Virus record (IMG/VR): IMGVR_UViG_2609459852_000009
Length of the DNA: 14,095 nucleotides
Direction: 5' to 3' (one strand)
Source: a virus
Lineage: Duplodnaviria; Heunggongvirae; Uroviricota; Caudoviricetes
Part shown: piece after piece, positions 58 through 11,261 of the stretch
Layout: each line of letters starts with the position of its first letter
Numbering within the stretch: the stretch's first letter is position 1
Notes under the pieces: model-generated
The model's database searches: none
Told to the model about the DNA's origin: nothing
The model's input: only the letters and a program-made list of their open reading frames with translations
Position numbers and translations under genes: made by a program

Positions 58-2024
<1,967 letters not shown>

Positions 2025-4221: not shown

Positions 4222-4377
4222 TTACTCCTCAGGTTCGTAAGCTGTGAAGACAGCGACCTCCGTCTGGCCGGTTCGGATTCGTACCTCGCAAAGGTCTTTC
4301 CTCGTTACCAGTGCCGTCACTATGACGGTTAAACAGATGACGATCAGGGCGATTAACATCGCCTTTTGCTGCTTCAT
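4222..4377 (-). CDS. hokD: Hok-family type I toxin (HokD/RelF-like membrane peptide)
   Basis: Internal ATG at 4375-4377 with AAGGAG upstream gives MKQQKAMLIALIVICLTVIVTALVTRKDLCEVRIRTGQTEVAVFTAYEPEE, which I recognise as Hok family. The 70-aa track ORF is an in-frame upstream extension. Confidence 0.85.
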   Translation of the reverse strand: MKQQKAMLIALIVICLTVIVTALVTRKDLCEVRIRTGQTEVAVFTAYEPEE

Positions 4378-4555
4378 AGCCTGCTTCTCCTTGCCTTTCG
4401 GCACGTAAGAGGCTAACCTACATGTGTCTAGCATGAAATTGGCCTCAGATTAATGTTAAGCGTCTTGCAGGACGCGTAATGTTAACTGGGGCTTTTCTCT
4501 ATCTGCCGTTGGTGTTCATGCCCGAGGCAGATAGCCTCAAGCACCCGCAGCCATT
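4378..4555 (-). promoter_or_regulatory. hok mRNA 5' leader with conserved stem-loop (possible mok/sok regulatory region)
   Basis: Minus-strand GCTTGAGGCTATCTGCCTC (plus 4524-4542) forms a GAGGC/GCCTC hairpin and resembles the conserved 5' element of hok mRNAs as I recall them. Exact sok and mok boundaries are not resolved. Confidence 0.45.
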
Positions 4556-5626: not shown

Positions 5627-7081
5627 CTATTGTTTTAATAACATTTCAAAATCCTCATTCCAGTGCGTGTTTTGTGAAATACGGGTATCAATTTCATCAA
5701 GCAGCATATCATGAGAAAGTATGCTTAAAGGGTCATTCCCATTTTTACCAAAACGCATCGTAGTTTCTGCTATTTCCCAATCTTCTGCGCTGATTGATGG
5801 CTGTATTGCATGGCAGTAGATAGCCTTCACATCCTTTTCATGACAGTCAAAATTATTGATGCTTTCTGCAATTTTACGAGCTCTTTCAATTTCGACAACT
5901 GGACCATGTAAAGTTTCATATGATATATGCACAATTGTAGGGGTATTATCTGGAACCTGTCGTACCGCTTTGCTTAAGTGCGTTTTAATATCTTTTGCTT
6001 TTTTATTAATCGATTCCTCTGCTATACATTCCCAACGAGCACAGTAACCAGAGTGTATTCCAGTGCAAAAAATGTTAAGTATATCAACACCGTCGTCCGG
6101 ACCTACTCGTACAAGTCCTTTTGGGGCACAAAGATGAGTGTAATTTTCGCTGCTGCTAAAACTTCCGGCCAACAACGAAACCATCTGTGGAGAGTTCCAT
6201 TTAACCATGTATTTATCAAAATGCTCATTGATATTTTTCATATCTATTCTATTAATCAGTATTATAATTTCATCATTTTCTATTCTCAGTGACTTTCTCG
6301 TCGAGATATTAGACTTTATTTCATTGAAGATTTTTGCTAAAATATATTCATCTGTATCTTTTACTTCAACCTTGAAAAGCACGTCTAAAAATATGTTTTG
6401 TCTAGACTGAGTTAGAATAGGTACTAAATTGAGCCATCTTTGCCTCCATTCTCGACGCTCATTTTCAGAATATTCAGTCACTTTAGATAAACGCTTACAT
6501 TCCACAAAAAAGCTTTCTTCACCTTTAGTAACTTTTAAATCAGGAGTTTTATTTAATGCTGTTTCTGGAATAAATTCTACTCTATAACCATTGCGCGCAT
6601 ACATAATCGCAACAACTAATTCAAACAATGTTGAATCAGGTTGATTTATTTTACCGTTAAGAAATTCCGAAAGTTTTTCATCAATCCCAACAATTTTTTT
6701 TGCAAGCTCAATATGTCTTCCAACAGCCGCAAAAAAGGGAAATACTCGGGCTGATTGCGCTAACTCGCTAACTAAAGGCCGTTCATGTAAGCATTCTACA
6801 AGAAAAAGATACCATGCAACCCAATCCTCATGAAATGCCACCCTATTTTTTGGCTCTTCCATACTCTTCATTGCTTGGTCAAAATTCTTATAGGTGTTAT
6901 CTTCCTGTTCTCTGAAGTACTTGACTACATTTTTTTTGCGAGTCTCCCAAGTATCCTTTTCCAGATAAGATAAAAACCAGTCCAATGCAATTTTCGTATG
7001 ATGATGCCAGGGACTGGTATCCGTTGCTGCAAAAATCTCTTGTAGTTCTTTTGAATATTCCAATGTCTGTGTGTTAGCCAT
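5627..7081 (-). CDS. 484-aa protein with central PD-(D/E)xK nuclease-like signature; candidate defence or toxin nuclease
   Basis: ATG at 7079-7081 with GAGG 5 nt upstream; downstream hairpin. Motif E154 (FELVVAIMY), P180-D181 (TPDLKV), E194-C-K196 (FFVECKRL) at nt 6494-6622. GC content visibly lower than flanks. No named family recognised. Confidence 0.85.
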   Translation of the reverse strand: MANTQTLEYSKELQEIFAATDTSPWHHHTKIALDWFLSYLEKDTWETRKKNVVKYFREQEDNTYKNFDQAMKSMEEPKNRVAFHEDWVAWYLFLVECLHERPLVSELAQSARVFPFFAAVGRHIELAKKIVGIDEKLSEFLNGKINQPDSTLFELVVAIMYARNGYRVEFIPETALNKTPDLKVTKGEESFFVECKRLSKVTEYSENERREWRQRWLNLVPILTQSRQNIFLDVLFKVEVKDTDEYILAKIFNEIKSNISTRKSLRIENDEIIILINRIDMKNINEHFDKYMVKWNSPQMVSLLAGSFSSSENYTHLCAPKGLVRVGPDDGVDILNIFCTGIHSGYCARWECIAEESINKKAKDIKTHLSKAVRQVPDNTPTIVHISYETLHGPVVEIERARKIAESINNFDCHEKDVKAIYCHAIQPSISAEDWEIAETTMRFGKNGNDPLSILSHDMLLDEIDTRISQNTHWNEDFEMLLKQ

Positions 7082-7331
7082 TTTGACCTCATCATTGTTA
7101 ATTTATGAGATTTTACAACTTATAATGCATCTTCCAGATCGAGCCTCCAAGTAAGAAATCAGGCTAAATCAGACAGATATGTAATATATCCCTAGTCAAT
7201 TAGGCAGTCCACCCATAAATCCTAACAGTACGAAAATGGTTGGAACGTTATCCTAGGTTACTGCTCATCGTTTCCTTATGACCTCAATATATAAATATCC
7301 CAGCTCTTGCGGTTCGATTGTATGATTGACA

Positions 7332-7355: not shown

Positions 7356-7452
7356 AACCACGCCAGATCTACCCTGTGCCATGAAAAATGAGAATGTCAA
7401 TTCACTCCTGAACTAATGCTTTTTAATCTAGTAACGTCTAAAATACCTAACA

Positions 7453-7854
7453 TTATCCCTGATAAAATGCCAGTATGCGCTGCATAACTTCACTCATCCG
7501 GCACTCGCGACAGATTATGTTTAGGCGACTGTCGTAGCGACGTATTTCTCCATCAGGTAACGACCAGATAAGGTCCGGATCAACCACAGCTGTTTTCTTC
7601 ACCTTTGCCCTCGATAGTTTTTTGCGGGCGTTTTGCCAGTCCTTACGCGCCTGTTCAGACGGGAATAACCCGTAGCCGGAGTTGTATACATCGCCACTGG
7701 CTACCAGCTCTCTGGCAAGAACGCTCATCAGATATCTAGTCGCACCTGTTTTAGCTTCCAGTTGCCGTAACGTCTCACGACCACTCTGGCGCACGAGTTC
7801 CACCACCTGCCCTTTAATTTTTTCCCGCTCTTCTTGTGTAAAAACTTTTGCCAC
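7453..7854 (-). CDS. Hypothetical prophage protein (133 aa) immediately downstream of the O-like gene
   Basis: GTG start at 7852-7854 with AAGGGGG 5 nt upstream; basic protein; function unknown. Confidence 0.65.
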   Translation of the reverse strand: MAKVFTQEEREKIKGQVVELVRQSGRETLRQLEAKTGATRYLMSVLARELVASGDVYNSGYGLFPSEQARKDWQNARKKLSRAKVKKTAVVDPDLIWSLPDGEIRRYDSRLNIICRECRMSEVMQRILAFYQG

Positions 7855-7894
7855 AAGTCCCCCTTAAAATTACCTCATGACCTGAAATCAAAAC

Positions 7895-8860
7895 TTATCC
7901 TCTGAAACCAGGCGGAATTTCTGTATCCGGTTCAGAAATATGATTCACACAACGCTGTACAGGTGAACGTCCCAGGCGGATGACCAGTTCGTCCCATTTT
8001 TCGCGGAGTTTTGACGGGCTCATGATGTTTTTTACCCAGAATGGATCCCGCTGTACCCGACCAAACATTTCGCAAATTTGTCTGTGGCTTCTGCCATCCA
8101 GCATCCGCATTGTGCGCACGTCATTGGCCCAGGCTGTCCAGTTAGGCTCTTTTGGTCGCATGATCTCTCCATCGTCGCTGGCAGCCTGTTCGTAAAGGTT
8201 CACGATCCGCCCCCAAATCCACTGCGCACACGCCAAATCCTCCCTGCTACCCCACTGGCGTTTTTTCACACTAAACACAACCGCGTCGGGGTTCCGAGTT
8301 AAAAAATCCTGTTCAGTCGTCTGCGGGTCCGGTTGCGAAGCTTCCGGACGAAAAGTGTTTTTATTCTCTGTAGTAATCTCTGTTGTATTTTCTGTAAGAT
8401 CATTGGGCCATTTTGACCCGATGACATTGGGTCGTTTTGAACCAATGGAGCGTTTCATTTTGACCTCTTCCATCGTGTCATTTTGACCTGATGGAGCGGC
8501 GCATTTTGAACCGATGGATTCGTTCAATTTGCCACCATCTAAAAGCTCGCTCCCATAGTTGATCGTGTAGAAATTGGTCATATCGCGCTTTGATTTATTG
8601 AGCTTTTCACAACGCAAAAGCCCCAGCGTTTTCAGACTTGCAAACGCGCGCTTTAACGTTGACTCTGACCAGAATGGGAACTGTTCCAGCCATTGTTCCG
8701 TTGTGTTATAAATCCAGCGAACACCATCACATTCCATACCGGAGTTGGTATCTCTCAACCAGTAGTGCAGTTGTTGCAAAACAATGGCTTCGTTTAAGCC
8801 GATTTTCATTGCCAGCTGCGTGTTTATAACCAGTGGGCGTTCAGCAAAAAGAAGACTCAT
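7895..8860 (-). CDS. Phage replication initiator (lambda O-like, N-terminal origin-binding type) with in-gene iterons
   Basis: N-terminus MSLLFAERPLVINTQLAMKIGLNEAIVLQQLHYWLRDTN is typical of phage replication-initiator N-domains as I recall them. Repeated IGSK peptide units are encoded by the tandem DNA iterons. ATG at 8858-8860 preferred over the upstream TTG at 8914. Confidence 0.8.
   Translation of the reverse strand: MSLLFAERPLVINTQLAMKIGLNEAIVLQQLHYWLRDTNSGMECDGVRWIYNTTEQWLEQFPFWSESTLKRAFASLKTLGLLRCEKLNKSKRDMTNFYTINYGSELLDGGKLNESIGSKCAAPSGQNDTMEEVKMKRSIGSKRPNVIGSKWPNDLTENTTEITTENKNTFRPEASQPDPQTTEQDFLTRNPDAVVFSVKKRQWGSREDLACAQWIWGRIVNLYEQAASDDGEIMRPKEPNWTAWANDVRTMRMLDGRSHRQICEMFGRVQRDPFWVKNIMSPSKLREKWDELVIRLGRSPVQRCVNHISEPDTEIPPGFRG
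8405..8525. repeat. Five tandem ~23-bp iterons (putative phage replication origin) inside the O-like gene
   Basis: TTTTGA(C/A) cores beginning at 8411, 8435, 8458, 8481 and 8504 (spacings 24, 23, 23, 23 bp); AT-rich stretch 8350-8400 lies alongside. Confidence 0.7.
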
Positions 8861-9362
8861 AATTCCATCCAGCTTTTTGTTGGTATTGCTGTCGATACGC
8901 AAGCTTGAAAGCAATTGCTTTTTCTATAAGTTCGTCAGTTTCACGATCTACAACGGCAGGATCTGCAAAAAGCAGTCCAGATTCCACCACATCGCCATAT
9001 TCTTTATTTAACCCGGCGATCATGTACGTAATACTTTTTCCATCACTGATCTCACGATACAACCTGAAATCACTAATCCGGATAGCCTCCATAATTGCAG
9101 GCACTAGCGCTGTGAACTTTTCACGCTTATCCCTGGTGTCGATAGCCTTCCAGCGTTCGAATATCTTCACTCGATTAACGCTAAGCGCTCGCTGATCAAC
9201 CGCGCCACCTTCATATGTGACACGCTGAACATCGATGTTCGGGCGCTCTTTCAAAGCCCAGAATGCTTCAGTGATTAATATCGTCGCCTGCTCCTGTGTC
9301 ATTCCTGGTCGACATATCCAGGCATCCAGAGCCTCACGAGCCTGTTCAGGAGTGATTTTCAT
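8841..9362 (-). CDS. YdaT-like protein in the cII position
   Basis: 173-aa ORF with ATG at 9360-9362. Overlaps the dicC stop by 17 nt and the O-like start by 20 nt. Conserved-looking KIFERW and ALVPAI segments recall YdaT-family proteins (memory only). Confidence 0.7.
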   Translation of the reverse strand: MKITPEQAREALDAWICRPGMTQEQATILITEAFWALKERPNIDVQRVTYEGGAVDQRALSVNRVKIFERWKAIDTRDKREKFTALVPAIMEAIRISDFRLYREISDGKSITYMIAGLNKEYGDVVESGLLFADPAVVDRETDELIEKAIAFKLAYRQQYQQKAGWNYESSFC

Positions 9363-9573
9363 TGTTCAACCGCCCCGCCCGCTTCGTCTTACGATATTCG
9401 TCATAAACTTTGGGATCATACTGAAGCTCCCCGCCAGATGCCTCCTGTAGACGCATCGCGCGACCTTCAGGAACCAGTATCCCCCAAGCAGCAACACTTG
9501 CCAGTCTCACTCCTGCGGCATTGGCAAGCTTTGTTTTGCTGCCAAAAAAAGTAATTGCGTCAACTTTAAGCAT
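9346..9573 (-). CDS. dicC: DicC-like Cro-type regulator
   Basis: 75 aa from the ATG at 9571-9573; HTH-like GSKTKLANAAGVRLASV; divergent from dicA across an operator-bearing 80-bp spacer; recognised as DicC. Confidence 0.85.
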   Translation of the reverse strand: MLKVDAITFFGSKTKLANAAGVRLASVAAWGILVPEGRAMRLQEASGGELQYDPKVYDEYRKTKRAGRLNNENHS

Positions 9574-9586
9574 CAAAGCCCCCTCT

Positions 9587-9604
9587 TGTTAGATTTTTCT
9601 AACA
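9587..9604. promoter_or_regulatory. Palindromic operator TGTTAGA-N4-TCTAACA in the dicC-dicA intergenic region
   Basis: Perfect 7-bp inverted arms separated by TTTT; the same consensus recurs downstream of dicA. Confidence 0.6.
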
Positions 9605-9653
9605 TTATTGTGCGCGGGATACCTAAGTCAAGAAAAATTAGAATTACCTAACT

Positions 9654-10061
9654 ATGGATACAAGAACCCTAGGCCAGCGAGTTCTGGCGCGACGAAAAGA
9701 ATTACGCTTAACACAACGAGAAGCTGCGCGCCTCGCTGGAGTTGCTCACGTCACAATTTCACAATGGGAAAGAGACGAAACCCAGCCAGTCGGAAAACGA
9801 TTGTTTGCTTTAGCGGATGCTCTGAAGTGCTCACCTACATGGCTAATGTTTGGTGACGAAGACAAGGCACCAGTGCCTGCACAAGAACTTCATGTGGAAA
9901 CAGAGCTAACTCCCAACCACAAAGAATTGATCGAATTATTCGATGCTCTTCCATCTTCCGAGCAGGAAGCCTTGCTGTCTGAAATGCGCGCAAGAGTAGA
10001 AAACTTCAACAAACTCTTCGAAGAAATGCTTAAAGCGCGTAAAAATAAATCAATAAAATAA
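9654..10061 (+). CDS. dicA: DicA-like Xre-family HTH repressor (cI analogue)
   Basis: 135-aa ORF; HTH LTQREAARLAGVAHVTISQWE; divergent partner dicC; followed by ydfA, dicF and dicB. Confidence 0.9.
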   Translation: MDTRTLGQRVLARRKELRLTQREAARLAGVAHVTISQWERDETQPVGKRLFALADALKCSPTWLMFGDEDKAPVPAQELHVETELTPNHKELIELFDALPSSEQEALLSEMRARVENFNKLFEEMLKARKNKSIK

Positions 10062-11203: not shown

Positions 11204-11261
11204 TTTCTGGTGACGTTTGGCGGTATCAGTTTTACTCCGTGACTGCTCTGCCGCCGTTTTT
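11204..11261 (+). ncRNA. dicF: DicF small regulatory RNA (ftsZ-targeting sRNA) with terminator
   Basis: TTTCTGGTGACGTTTGGCGGTATCAGTTTTACTCCGTGACTGCTCTGCCGCC followed by GTTTTT matches DicF as I remember it; terminal GGCGG...CCGCC hairpin plus U-run; located just upstream of dicB. Confidence 0.8.

Follow-up and report, generated by a model that had tools for sequence, protein, structure and literature searches.

The segment at positions 8350–8537 of a 14,095-nucleotide stretch of DNA (IMG/VR record IMGVR_UViG_2609459852_000009; the whole stretch analyzed is hereafter called the window), which represents a Qin-like lambdoid prophage, is very probably a cis-acting replication origin of the lambda type, judging from its sequence and from comparison with its relatives, and is situated within the linker-coding middle part of the prophage's own initiator gene. 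This O-like replication initiator gene (7895–8860, minus strand) is an open reading frame (ORF) encoding 321 amino acids from the ATG at 8860. A replication origin had been proposed here by a previous reading of the letters alone (the sequence-only reading), and the proposal is supported by the layout shared with the lambda origin (ori-lambda), the homology of the initiator's C-terminal domain to that of lambda O, selection acting at the DNA level, covariation of initiator residue 67 with an iteron base, and the occurrence of the same module in the complete phage genome HannyBb. The origin is also probably intact in the window prophage, in view of the 96–98% identity, over 88–90% of the length of a 2.3-kb replication-region query (7400–9700), to the phage genomes mEp460_ev081, PhiR42_1, and HannyBb.

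The proposed origin comprises an iteron array and, after it in the direction of transcription, an AT-rich block. The array (8403–8537, minus strand) contains six 19-bp units, whose centres are 23, 23, 23, 23, and 24 bp apart, a distance of some two helical turns, and their consensus, TcGGGTCAAAATGAcCCaA, has dyad flanks and equals its own reverse complement at 14 of the 19 positions. In gene orientation, all on the minus strand, the units are iteron 1 (8519–8537; TGGTGGCAAATTGAACGAA, also given as GGCAAATTGAAC), which is degenerate and in phase, 23 bp from iteron 2; iteron 2 (8496–8514; TCGGTTCAAAATGCGCCGC); iteron 3 (8473–8491; TCAGGTCAAAATGACACGA); iteron 4 (8450–8468; AGAGGTCAAAATGAAACGC); iteron 5 (8427–8445; TTGGTTCAAAACGACCCAA); and iteron 6 (8403–8421; TCGGGTCAAAATGGCCCAA), the most symmetric unit, which adjoins the AT-rich block. 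The five TTTTGA(C/A) cores listed in the sequence-only reading are found exactly at 8411, 8435, 8458, 8481, and 8504 of the plus strand, and their periodicity of 23–24 bp, for which a computational check had been called for, was reproduced by Tandem Repeats Finder (period 24 at 8401–8447 and period 23 at 8435–8518) as well as by a repeat-family search (spacings of 24, 23, 23, and 23 bp). That reading was right in placing the repeats inside the coding sequence of the O-like gene, but it missed that both the gene and the repeats run on the minus strand, and that a sixth unit, located upstream in gene orientation, extends the array to 8537, beyond the end assigned to it. Matches to the core GKTCAAAAYG number seven in the 14-kb window, where 0.26 would be expected; none of 200 shuffles reached seven, and five of the seven matches, all on the minus strand, constitute the array. 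An isolated perfect core (GGTCAAAATG) at 7079–7088 (minus strand) overlaps the ATG of a 484-amino-acid ORF and may be either a chance occurrence or a stray initiator site.

The repeats had also been described as encoding IGSK peptide units, which holds for three of them (iterons 2, 5, and 6), but the same core is read as SGQN in iteron 3 and as EVKM in iteron 4. Because the period is 23 bp, successive iterons stand in different reading frames, and the translation of one core in three frames argues for a repeat of the DNA, not of the peptide. Natural alleles encoding 290 amino acids (P0016–P0021) carry a clean in-frame deletion of 93 bp whose ends lie in iterons 2 and 6 (L087 3281–3440 compared with window 8330–8580), by which four repeat units are lost and two iterons and the 12-mers described below are kept; this is the kind of repeat-mediated change that would be expected of an iteron array.

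The AT-rich stretch at 8350–8400, to which the sequence-only reading had drawn attention, is real. Its GC content is 27%, compared with 47% in the window, and it forms the least stable duplex in the gene (at calculation windows of 30–60 bp), belonging to the least stable ~2% of the window. It contains three tandem 12-mers (ACAGARAWTAMW; 8360–8395, minus strand) reading ACAGAAAATACA, ACAGAGATTACT, and ACAGAGAATAAA, a structure that had gone unnoticed and that we propose to be the DNA unwinding element. The exact string CAGAGAWTACWACAGAGAWTAC is present in at least 120 IMG/VR contigs, 80 of which (L088–L167) were examined for its context: in 48 it lies in a gene with an N-domain of the window type, and in about 25 in initiator-like genes with other N-domains and other iterons (AACGGAACA, AAGGGATTCCC, GACCCTCC, and GTTAAGnnnCTTAAC), the C-domains of which are of the Phg_2220_C, lambda-O-C-like, and other types. 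In each case, the string directly follows the iterons, between the parts coding for the N- and C-domains. Since the 12-mers are shared across initiator families, they appear to form a module not tied to one such family, and intrinsic unwinding or the loading of host factors would be a more fitting role than recognition by the N-domain. Neither the DNA nor the peptide strings of the 12-mers occur in any paper of the literature collection searched. A scan for DnaA boxes gave four matches against 1.6 expected, none of them in the origin core, and thus no evidence of DnaA dependence, and folding of positions 8240–8420 as single-stranded DNA gave no special hairpin (z −0.5). A weak inverted repeat is present at 8261–8306.

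The codons of the origin region have been conserved in a manner different from those of the folded domains. In an alignment of 15 homologous genes (Enterobacteriaceae, Pantoea, Xenorhabdus, and Edwardsiella), the fraction of identical codons, given an identical amino acid, is 0.78 in the iteron-coding part and 0.90 in the 12-mer-coding part, against 0.46 and 0.44 in the parts coding for the N- and C-domains, with amino-acid identities of 0.49, 0.72, 0.68, and 0.35, respectively. As the iteron-coding part has a lower amino-acid identity than the N-domain yet a higher codon identity, recent recombination alone is insufficient to account for the pattern. An earlier test of codon bias, in which the repeats had been defined on the DNA, was partly circular and was hence repeated with tandem TExT peptides defined on the protein only; GAG encodes the Glu in 92 of 93 cases, as against 48% in the remainder of these genes, and ACA encodes the first Thr in all 93, as against 25% in the remainder. 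The sole non-GAG Glu codon among the 93 (from 34 genes) is the GAA in the first 12-mer of the window itself, which reads CAGAAAATAC at 8385–8394. The spacing between the first 12-mer and the second is 11 bp in nine relatives, which places the first in another frame, where it encodes RDY rather than TETT. Synonymous conservation, codon choice, frame-independent conservation, recurrence in relatives, and the residue–base covariation described next together show, on comparative grounds, that selection acts on the DNA itself.

A scan of one genome per species yielded 80 loci encoding the N-domain (L003–L082; 81 genes with that of the window), derived from Enterobacterales, Pseudomonas, Acinetobacter, Photobacterium, Staphylococcus, lactobacilli (Lactobacillaceae), Bacillus relatives, and Clostridia. 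Three or more iterons spaced at 22–24 bp are present in 58 of the 81 genes, having in common a CAAAWTG centre with flanks that vary by lineage (GGT..ACC, GGA..TCC, GGG..CCC, GAT..ATC, and others), and two or more phased CAGAGAnTnC 12-mers lie directly downstream of the iterons in 57. Residue 67, situated where the predicted recognition helix starts (Ser67 in the window initiator; codon 8660–8662, minus strand), tracks the iteron base beside the CA core in the 53 genes compared: T accompanies S (19 of 26), G accompanies D (15 of 15), and A accompanies K or R (8 of 8), and these pairings recur in unrelated hosts. The mutual information is 1.44 of 1.71 bits for residue 67 and 0.90 for the next-best column, by a statistic that ignores phylogeny. 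This covariation is the expected signature of a cognate initiator–iteron pair, and residue 67 is a candidate specificity determinant. The N-domain family itself is large: of 1.84 billion cluster representatives, 10,302 are related to the domain at E ≤ 1e-3; some relatives of 400–880 amino acids contain two copies of the domain.

The initiator matches the profile of PHROG 391 ('replication initiation O-like') over its full length (E 2.1e-92; residues 17–321 on profile positions 11–298 of 298), even though its RefSeq name is 'hypothetical protein'; no Pfam family was matched, nor any NCBIfam family apart from the 20-residue DnaT match described below. The domain layout was taken from an AlphaFold2 (AF2) model, built on a 12-sequence alignment (mean predicted local distance difference test score, pLDDT, 53) and used for this purpose alone. 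The N-terminal winged-helix-like domain (residues 1–105; 8546–8860, minus strand), presumed to be the iteron reader, is modelled at low confidence with helices at residues 14–20, 22–38, 54–60, and 66–78 and strands at 42–49, 82–86, and 96–100, and a PDB profile search returned weak PadR-like winged-helix matches (E 0.14). Residues 84–175, between the N-domain and the helical C-domain, are unstructured in the same low-confidence model, and the origin elements encode residues 108–167. The helical C-terminal domain (residues 183–296; 7973–8314, minus strand) is homologous to that of lambda O, residues 147–294 being 34% identical to lambda O residues 135–270 (BLASTP, E 9e-28), and in both genes the aligned part begins at the last iteron and the AT-rich block. 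In contrast to the C-domain, the N-domain has no detectable homology to that of lambda O, with BLASTP aligning the C-half only, no match to PF04492, and an hhalign profile probability of 0.04%; the N-domain was thus not assigned to the lambda O family (Phage_rep_O).

The arrangement is worth comparing with those of known origins. The lambda origin consists of iterons and an AT-rich tract in the middle of O, and the origins of Stx phages contain six iterons (PMC7466680); the lambda record itself has four annotated iterons inside O, followed by an A-rich block. The window resembles ori-lambda and the Stx phages 933W and P27 in having dyad iterons of about 19 bp with a TCAAAAYG-type centre at a spacing of 20–24 bp, and the latter two also in the number of six units. 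As in lambda, the iterons precede an A-rich, AT-rich block along the direction of transcription, in the linker-coding middle of a gene downstream of pR-cro-cII, and the product shares a homologous C-terminal domain with lambda O. The window differs from lambda in its N-domain without detectable homology to that of O, in the iteron flanks (GGT...ACC instead of CCC...GGG), in the three regular 12-mers that make up the AT-rich block, in the absence of a following P gene, and in the DnaT-like tail of the initiator. The origin in the O-like gene 18 of P22 (rep_origin 32840–32984) likewise has CGGTAAAAC-type iterons and then an A-rich block with repeated ACAAAAGACAAT, but P22 encodes its own DnaB-type helicase (gene 12), whereas no helicase or loader gene is present in the window. 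In ori-lambda (L002 520–575) and P22 (L208 32920–32960), each A-rich block contains two ACAAAAGACA(C/A)TAT-like units, about 14–15 bp apart, that resemble a looser version of the regular 12-mers. The 'replisome organizer' origins of Gram-positive phages (oriL in SPP1 gene 38; lactococcal Tuc2009 and TP901-1) also place repeats inside the initiator gene, where they give rise to a low-complexity protein stretch, but have other repeat sequences and other initiator families, and these phages encode a helicase loader and/or a helicase.

How the host helicase might be recruited is suggested by the C-terminal end of the initiator. Searches by tblastn with lambda P, DnaC, and DnaB found no phage loader in the window, where the sole DnaC-like match is the IstB protein of an insertion sequence (IS) of the IS21 family (58–855), and none anywhere in the complete 45-kb genome of HannyBb, in which the window-type module, at ~96% identity, is the sole replication module. 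The position that P occupies in lambda, downstream of the O-like gene, is taken by a DUF977/Ren-like gene (7453–7854, minus strand), whose product is no helicase loader. At its C-terminus, the initiator has a DnaT-like tail of 21 residues (VQRCVNHISEPDTEIPPGFRG; 7898–7960, minus strand): its last 20–21 residues are 65–70% identical to the C-terminal tail of E. coli DnaT (70% over 20 residues by tblastn), and both proteins end in IPPGFRG. The match joins initiator residues 302–321 to DnaT residues 160–179 and reaches 16.3 bits with NCBIfam NF002770, far under the cutoff of 201; as there is no similarity to the N-domain or the three-helix bundle of DnaT, identification of the initiator as DnaT was ruled out, and the RAST-style name 'Primosomal protein I' given to phage copies is misleading because the resemblance is limited to the tail. 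The motif IPxGF(R/K)G is kept in relatives, even where the preceding residues differ.

Among 71 loci with enough downstream sequence, a homolog of DnaC, DnaB, or P lies within 3 kb in none of the 22 with an xPxGF(R/K)G terminus, compared with 30 of the 49 without it (Fisher p = 2e-7, a statistic that ignores phylogeny). The tail-bearing loci with a named organism are all from Enterobacterales, the group possessing DnaT, and a few others are in metagenome bins labelled otherwise or uncultured. Since the tail never occurs with a downstream loader, we propose that it substitutes for the phage-encoded loader, presumably by docking on a host restart or loading protein. In DnaT, the C-terminal segment is a flexible tail of 20 residues (PMC5778457), and a fragment lacking residues 154–179 shows a roughly doubled Kd for single-stranded DNA (PMC4132743); no partner for the last 20 residues is given in the DnaT and preprimosome papers searched. 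More tentatively, one may envisage a widespread 'solo-initiator' class of origins, an idea that we hold to be possible rather than probable, in which the DnaT-like tail plugs into host PriA/PriB/DnaT or DnaB–DnaC and the CAGAGAWTAC 12-mer array serves as a portable unwinding or helicase-loading module, swapped among unrelated initiator families from Proteobacteria to Firmicutes. The literature collection searched contained nothing relevant on such a class or on a DnaT tail in phage initiators; modules of this kind are said to have been classified by Weigel and Seitz in 2006.

On the minus strand, the genes are ordered as pR-like promoter, cro-like (P22_Cro; 9576–9346), cII/YdaT-like (9362–8841), O-like, and DUF977/Ren-like, the cro-like and cII/YdaT-like genes lying upstream of the O-like gene in the same operon, and a DicA-like repressor gene is divergent from this operon. 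The promoter (TTGACT-16-AATAAT; 9604–9631, minus strand) matches the sigma-70 consensus at 10 of 12 positions, a consensus match only, and would drive transcription of the cro-like, cII/YdaT-like, and O-like genes and of the origin along with them. In the first step of the predicted mechanism, rightward early transcription from this promoter (9631–9604) would express the cro-like, cII-like, and O-like proteins and cross the origin. Dimers of the N-domain would then bind the six 19-bp iterons to form an O-some-like complex (step 2), with a cognate specificity supported by the covariation of residue 67 with the iteron base. By analogy to lambda, the resulting strain may open the adjoining block of three 12-mers, the weakest duplex (step 3). 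Finally, as the mutually exclusive occurrence of tail and loader suggests, host DnaB would be brought in without a phage-encoded P, DnaC, or DnaB, the lambda-O-like C-domain and the DnaT-like tail recruiting host restart or loading proteins (step 4).

Several points weigh against a functional origin of this kind or loosen the evidence for it. The enrichment of the AT-rich block in A and T is no more than moderate (27% GC over 51 bp), its first 12-mer may be slightly weakened by the unique GAA, and iteron 1 is degenerate. Domain boundaries are approximate owing to the pLDDT of 53, the codon-identity and covariation statistics ignore phylogeny and mosaic recombination, and an IS21-family element is inserted downstream, so that the prophage may be defective overall. 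One alternative is that the origin, although recognizable, is no longer functional and is decaying as a remnant within a Qin-like prophage that is defective, which we consider unlikely. The IS21-family element (58–2024, minus strand) consists of istA (852–2024; rve and Mu-transposase C-terminal domains) and istB (58–855; IstB_IS21), adjoins a DUF968 gene, and occupies the site of rusA and Q in relatives, by which late regulation of the prophage is probably disrupted. The whole module has been lost from K-12 Qin (L086), which is colinear with the window on either side of the segment 4392–9082 but has relBE-ydfV-flxA-ydfW in place of this segment, which contains the 484-amino-acid ORF, the DUF977 gene, the initiator together with the origin inside it, and the greater part of the cII/YdaT-like gene; the statement in the sequence-only reading that K-12 Qin is devoid of replication genes was therefore right. 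Alleles minus four iterons circulate, and the G-to-A change in the first 12-mer was seen in no other gene examined. Against decay, the ORF is intact and 96–98% identical to deposited phage copies, the iteron and 12-mer block differs from that of HannyBb at few positions, and the IS leaves the replication module untouched. Moreover, two iterons and the AT-rich region, the minimal unwinding unit, suffice for unwinding in lambda (PMC7466680).

It is very improbable that the iterons serve chiefly in regulation or titration, whether the initiator is thereby autoregulated or related phages are excluded or rendered incompatible, and not as the place where replication starts. Parts of the literature on plasmid iteron arrays and cloned lambda origin fragments do indicate that such DNA can inhibit related replicons (PMC3349717, PMC4488673), from which a resident prophage could gain, but the invariable coupling of the array to an adjacent unwinding-type block and its position in the initiator gene are the layout of an origin, phage genomes having this module alone must replicate from somewhere, and a titration role would be additional to that of an origin, not an alternative to it. 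The notion that the repeats are a feature of the protein alone, a low-complexity flexible linker (IGSK, TExT) with no role as DNA, accommodates the AF2-unstructured segment encoded here and some repeated peptides (IGSK three times; TENT/TEIT), but retains hardly any credibility, being already contradicted by a 23-bp period that puts the core in three frames (IGSK, SGQN, and EVKM), by synonymous sites far more conserved, and amino acids less conserved, than in the folded domains, by codons essentially fixed at GAG and ACA, and by 12-mers standing 11 bp apart in different frames in nine relatives.

The remaining features of the window concern its cargo and distribution. The 484-amino-acid ORF (5627–7081, minus strand), placed between a nin-like region and the replication module, has no Pfam family, belongs to PHROG 37220 of unknown function, and has a weak GajB-like match (E 0.002); it may be a moron or a defence gene, as relatives carry different cargo at this place. 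PADLOC found nothing meaningful in the initiator, the DUF977 gene, or this 484-amino-acid neighbour. A hok/sok-type toxin–antitoxin system (Hok/Gef ORF at 4222–4434 and sok RNA at 4372–4546) and the small RNA DicF (11205–11256) are present as in K-12 Qin. The queried segment of 1,051 bp (7850–8900), comprising the gene and short flanks, is 99.7% identical to E. coli EC93 throughout, and at least 80% of this query finds a match in 1749 of the 5426 complete E. coli genomes.

An origin inside the initiator gene is what would be expected of lambdoid replication modules, and origins of this kind are well known, although we found no description of a variant with a 12-mer block of regular build and a solo, non-lambda initiator of the winged-helix type that ends in a DnaT-like tail. 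Assignment of the very probable origin described here would provide a concrete annotation, as initiator and origin, for a gene whose query is matched over at least 80% of its length in about one third of complete E. coli genomes and for an N-domain family of more than 10,000 cluster representatives. The covariation yields a candidate rule of residue-to-base specificity (position 67 being S, D, or K where the base beside the iteron core is T, G, or A, respectively) that is directly testable. Finally, the confinement of the DnaT-like tail, among loci with a named organism, to Enterobacterales, never in company with a downstream loader gene, suggests how such phages may recruit the host helicase, and may offer a handle on the function of the flexible DnaT tail and on the recruitment of DnaB–DnaC in replication restart.

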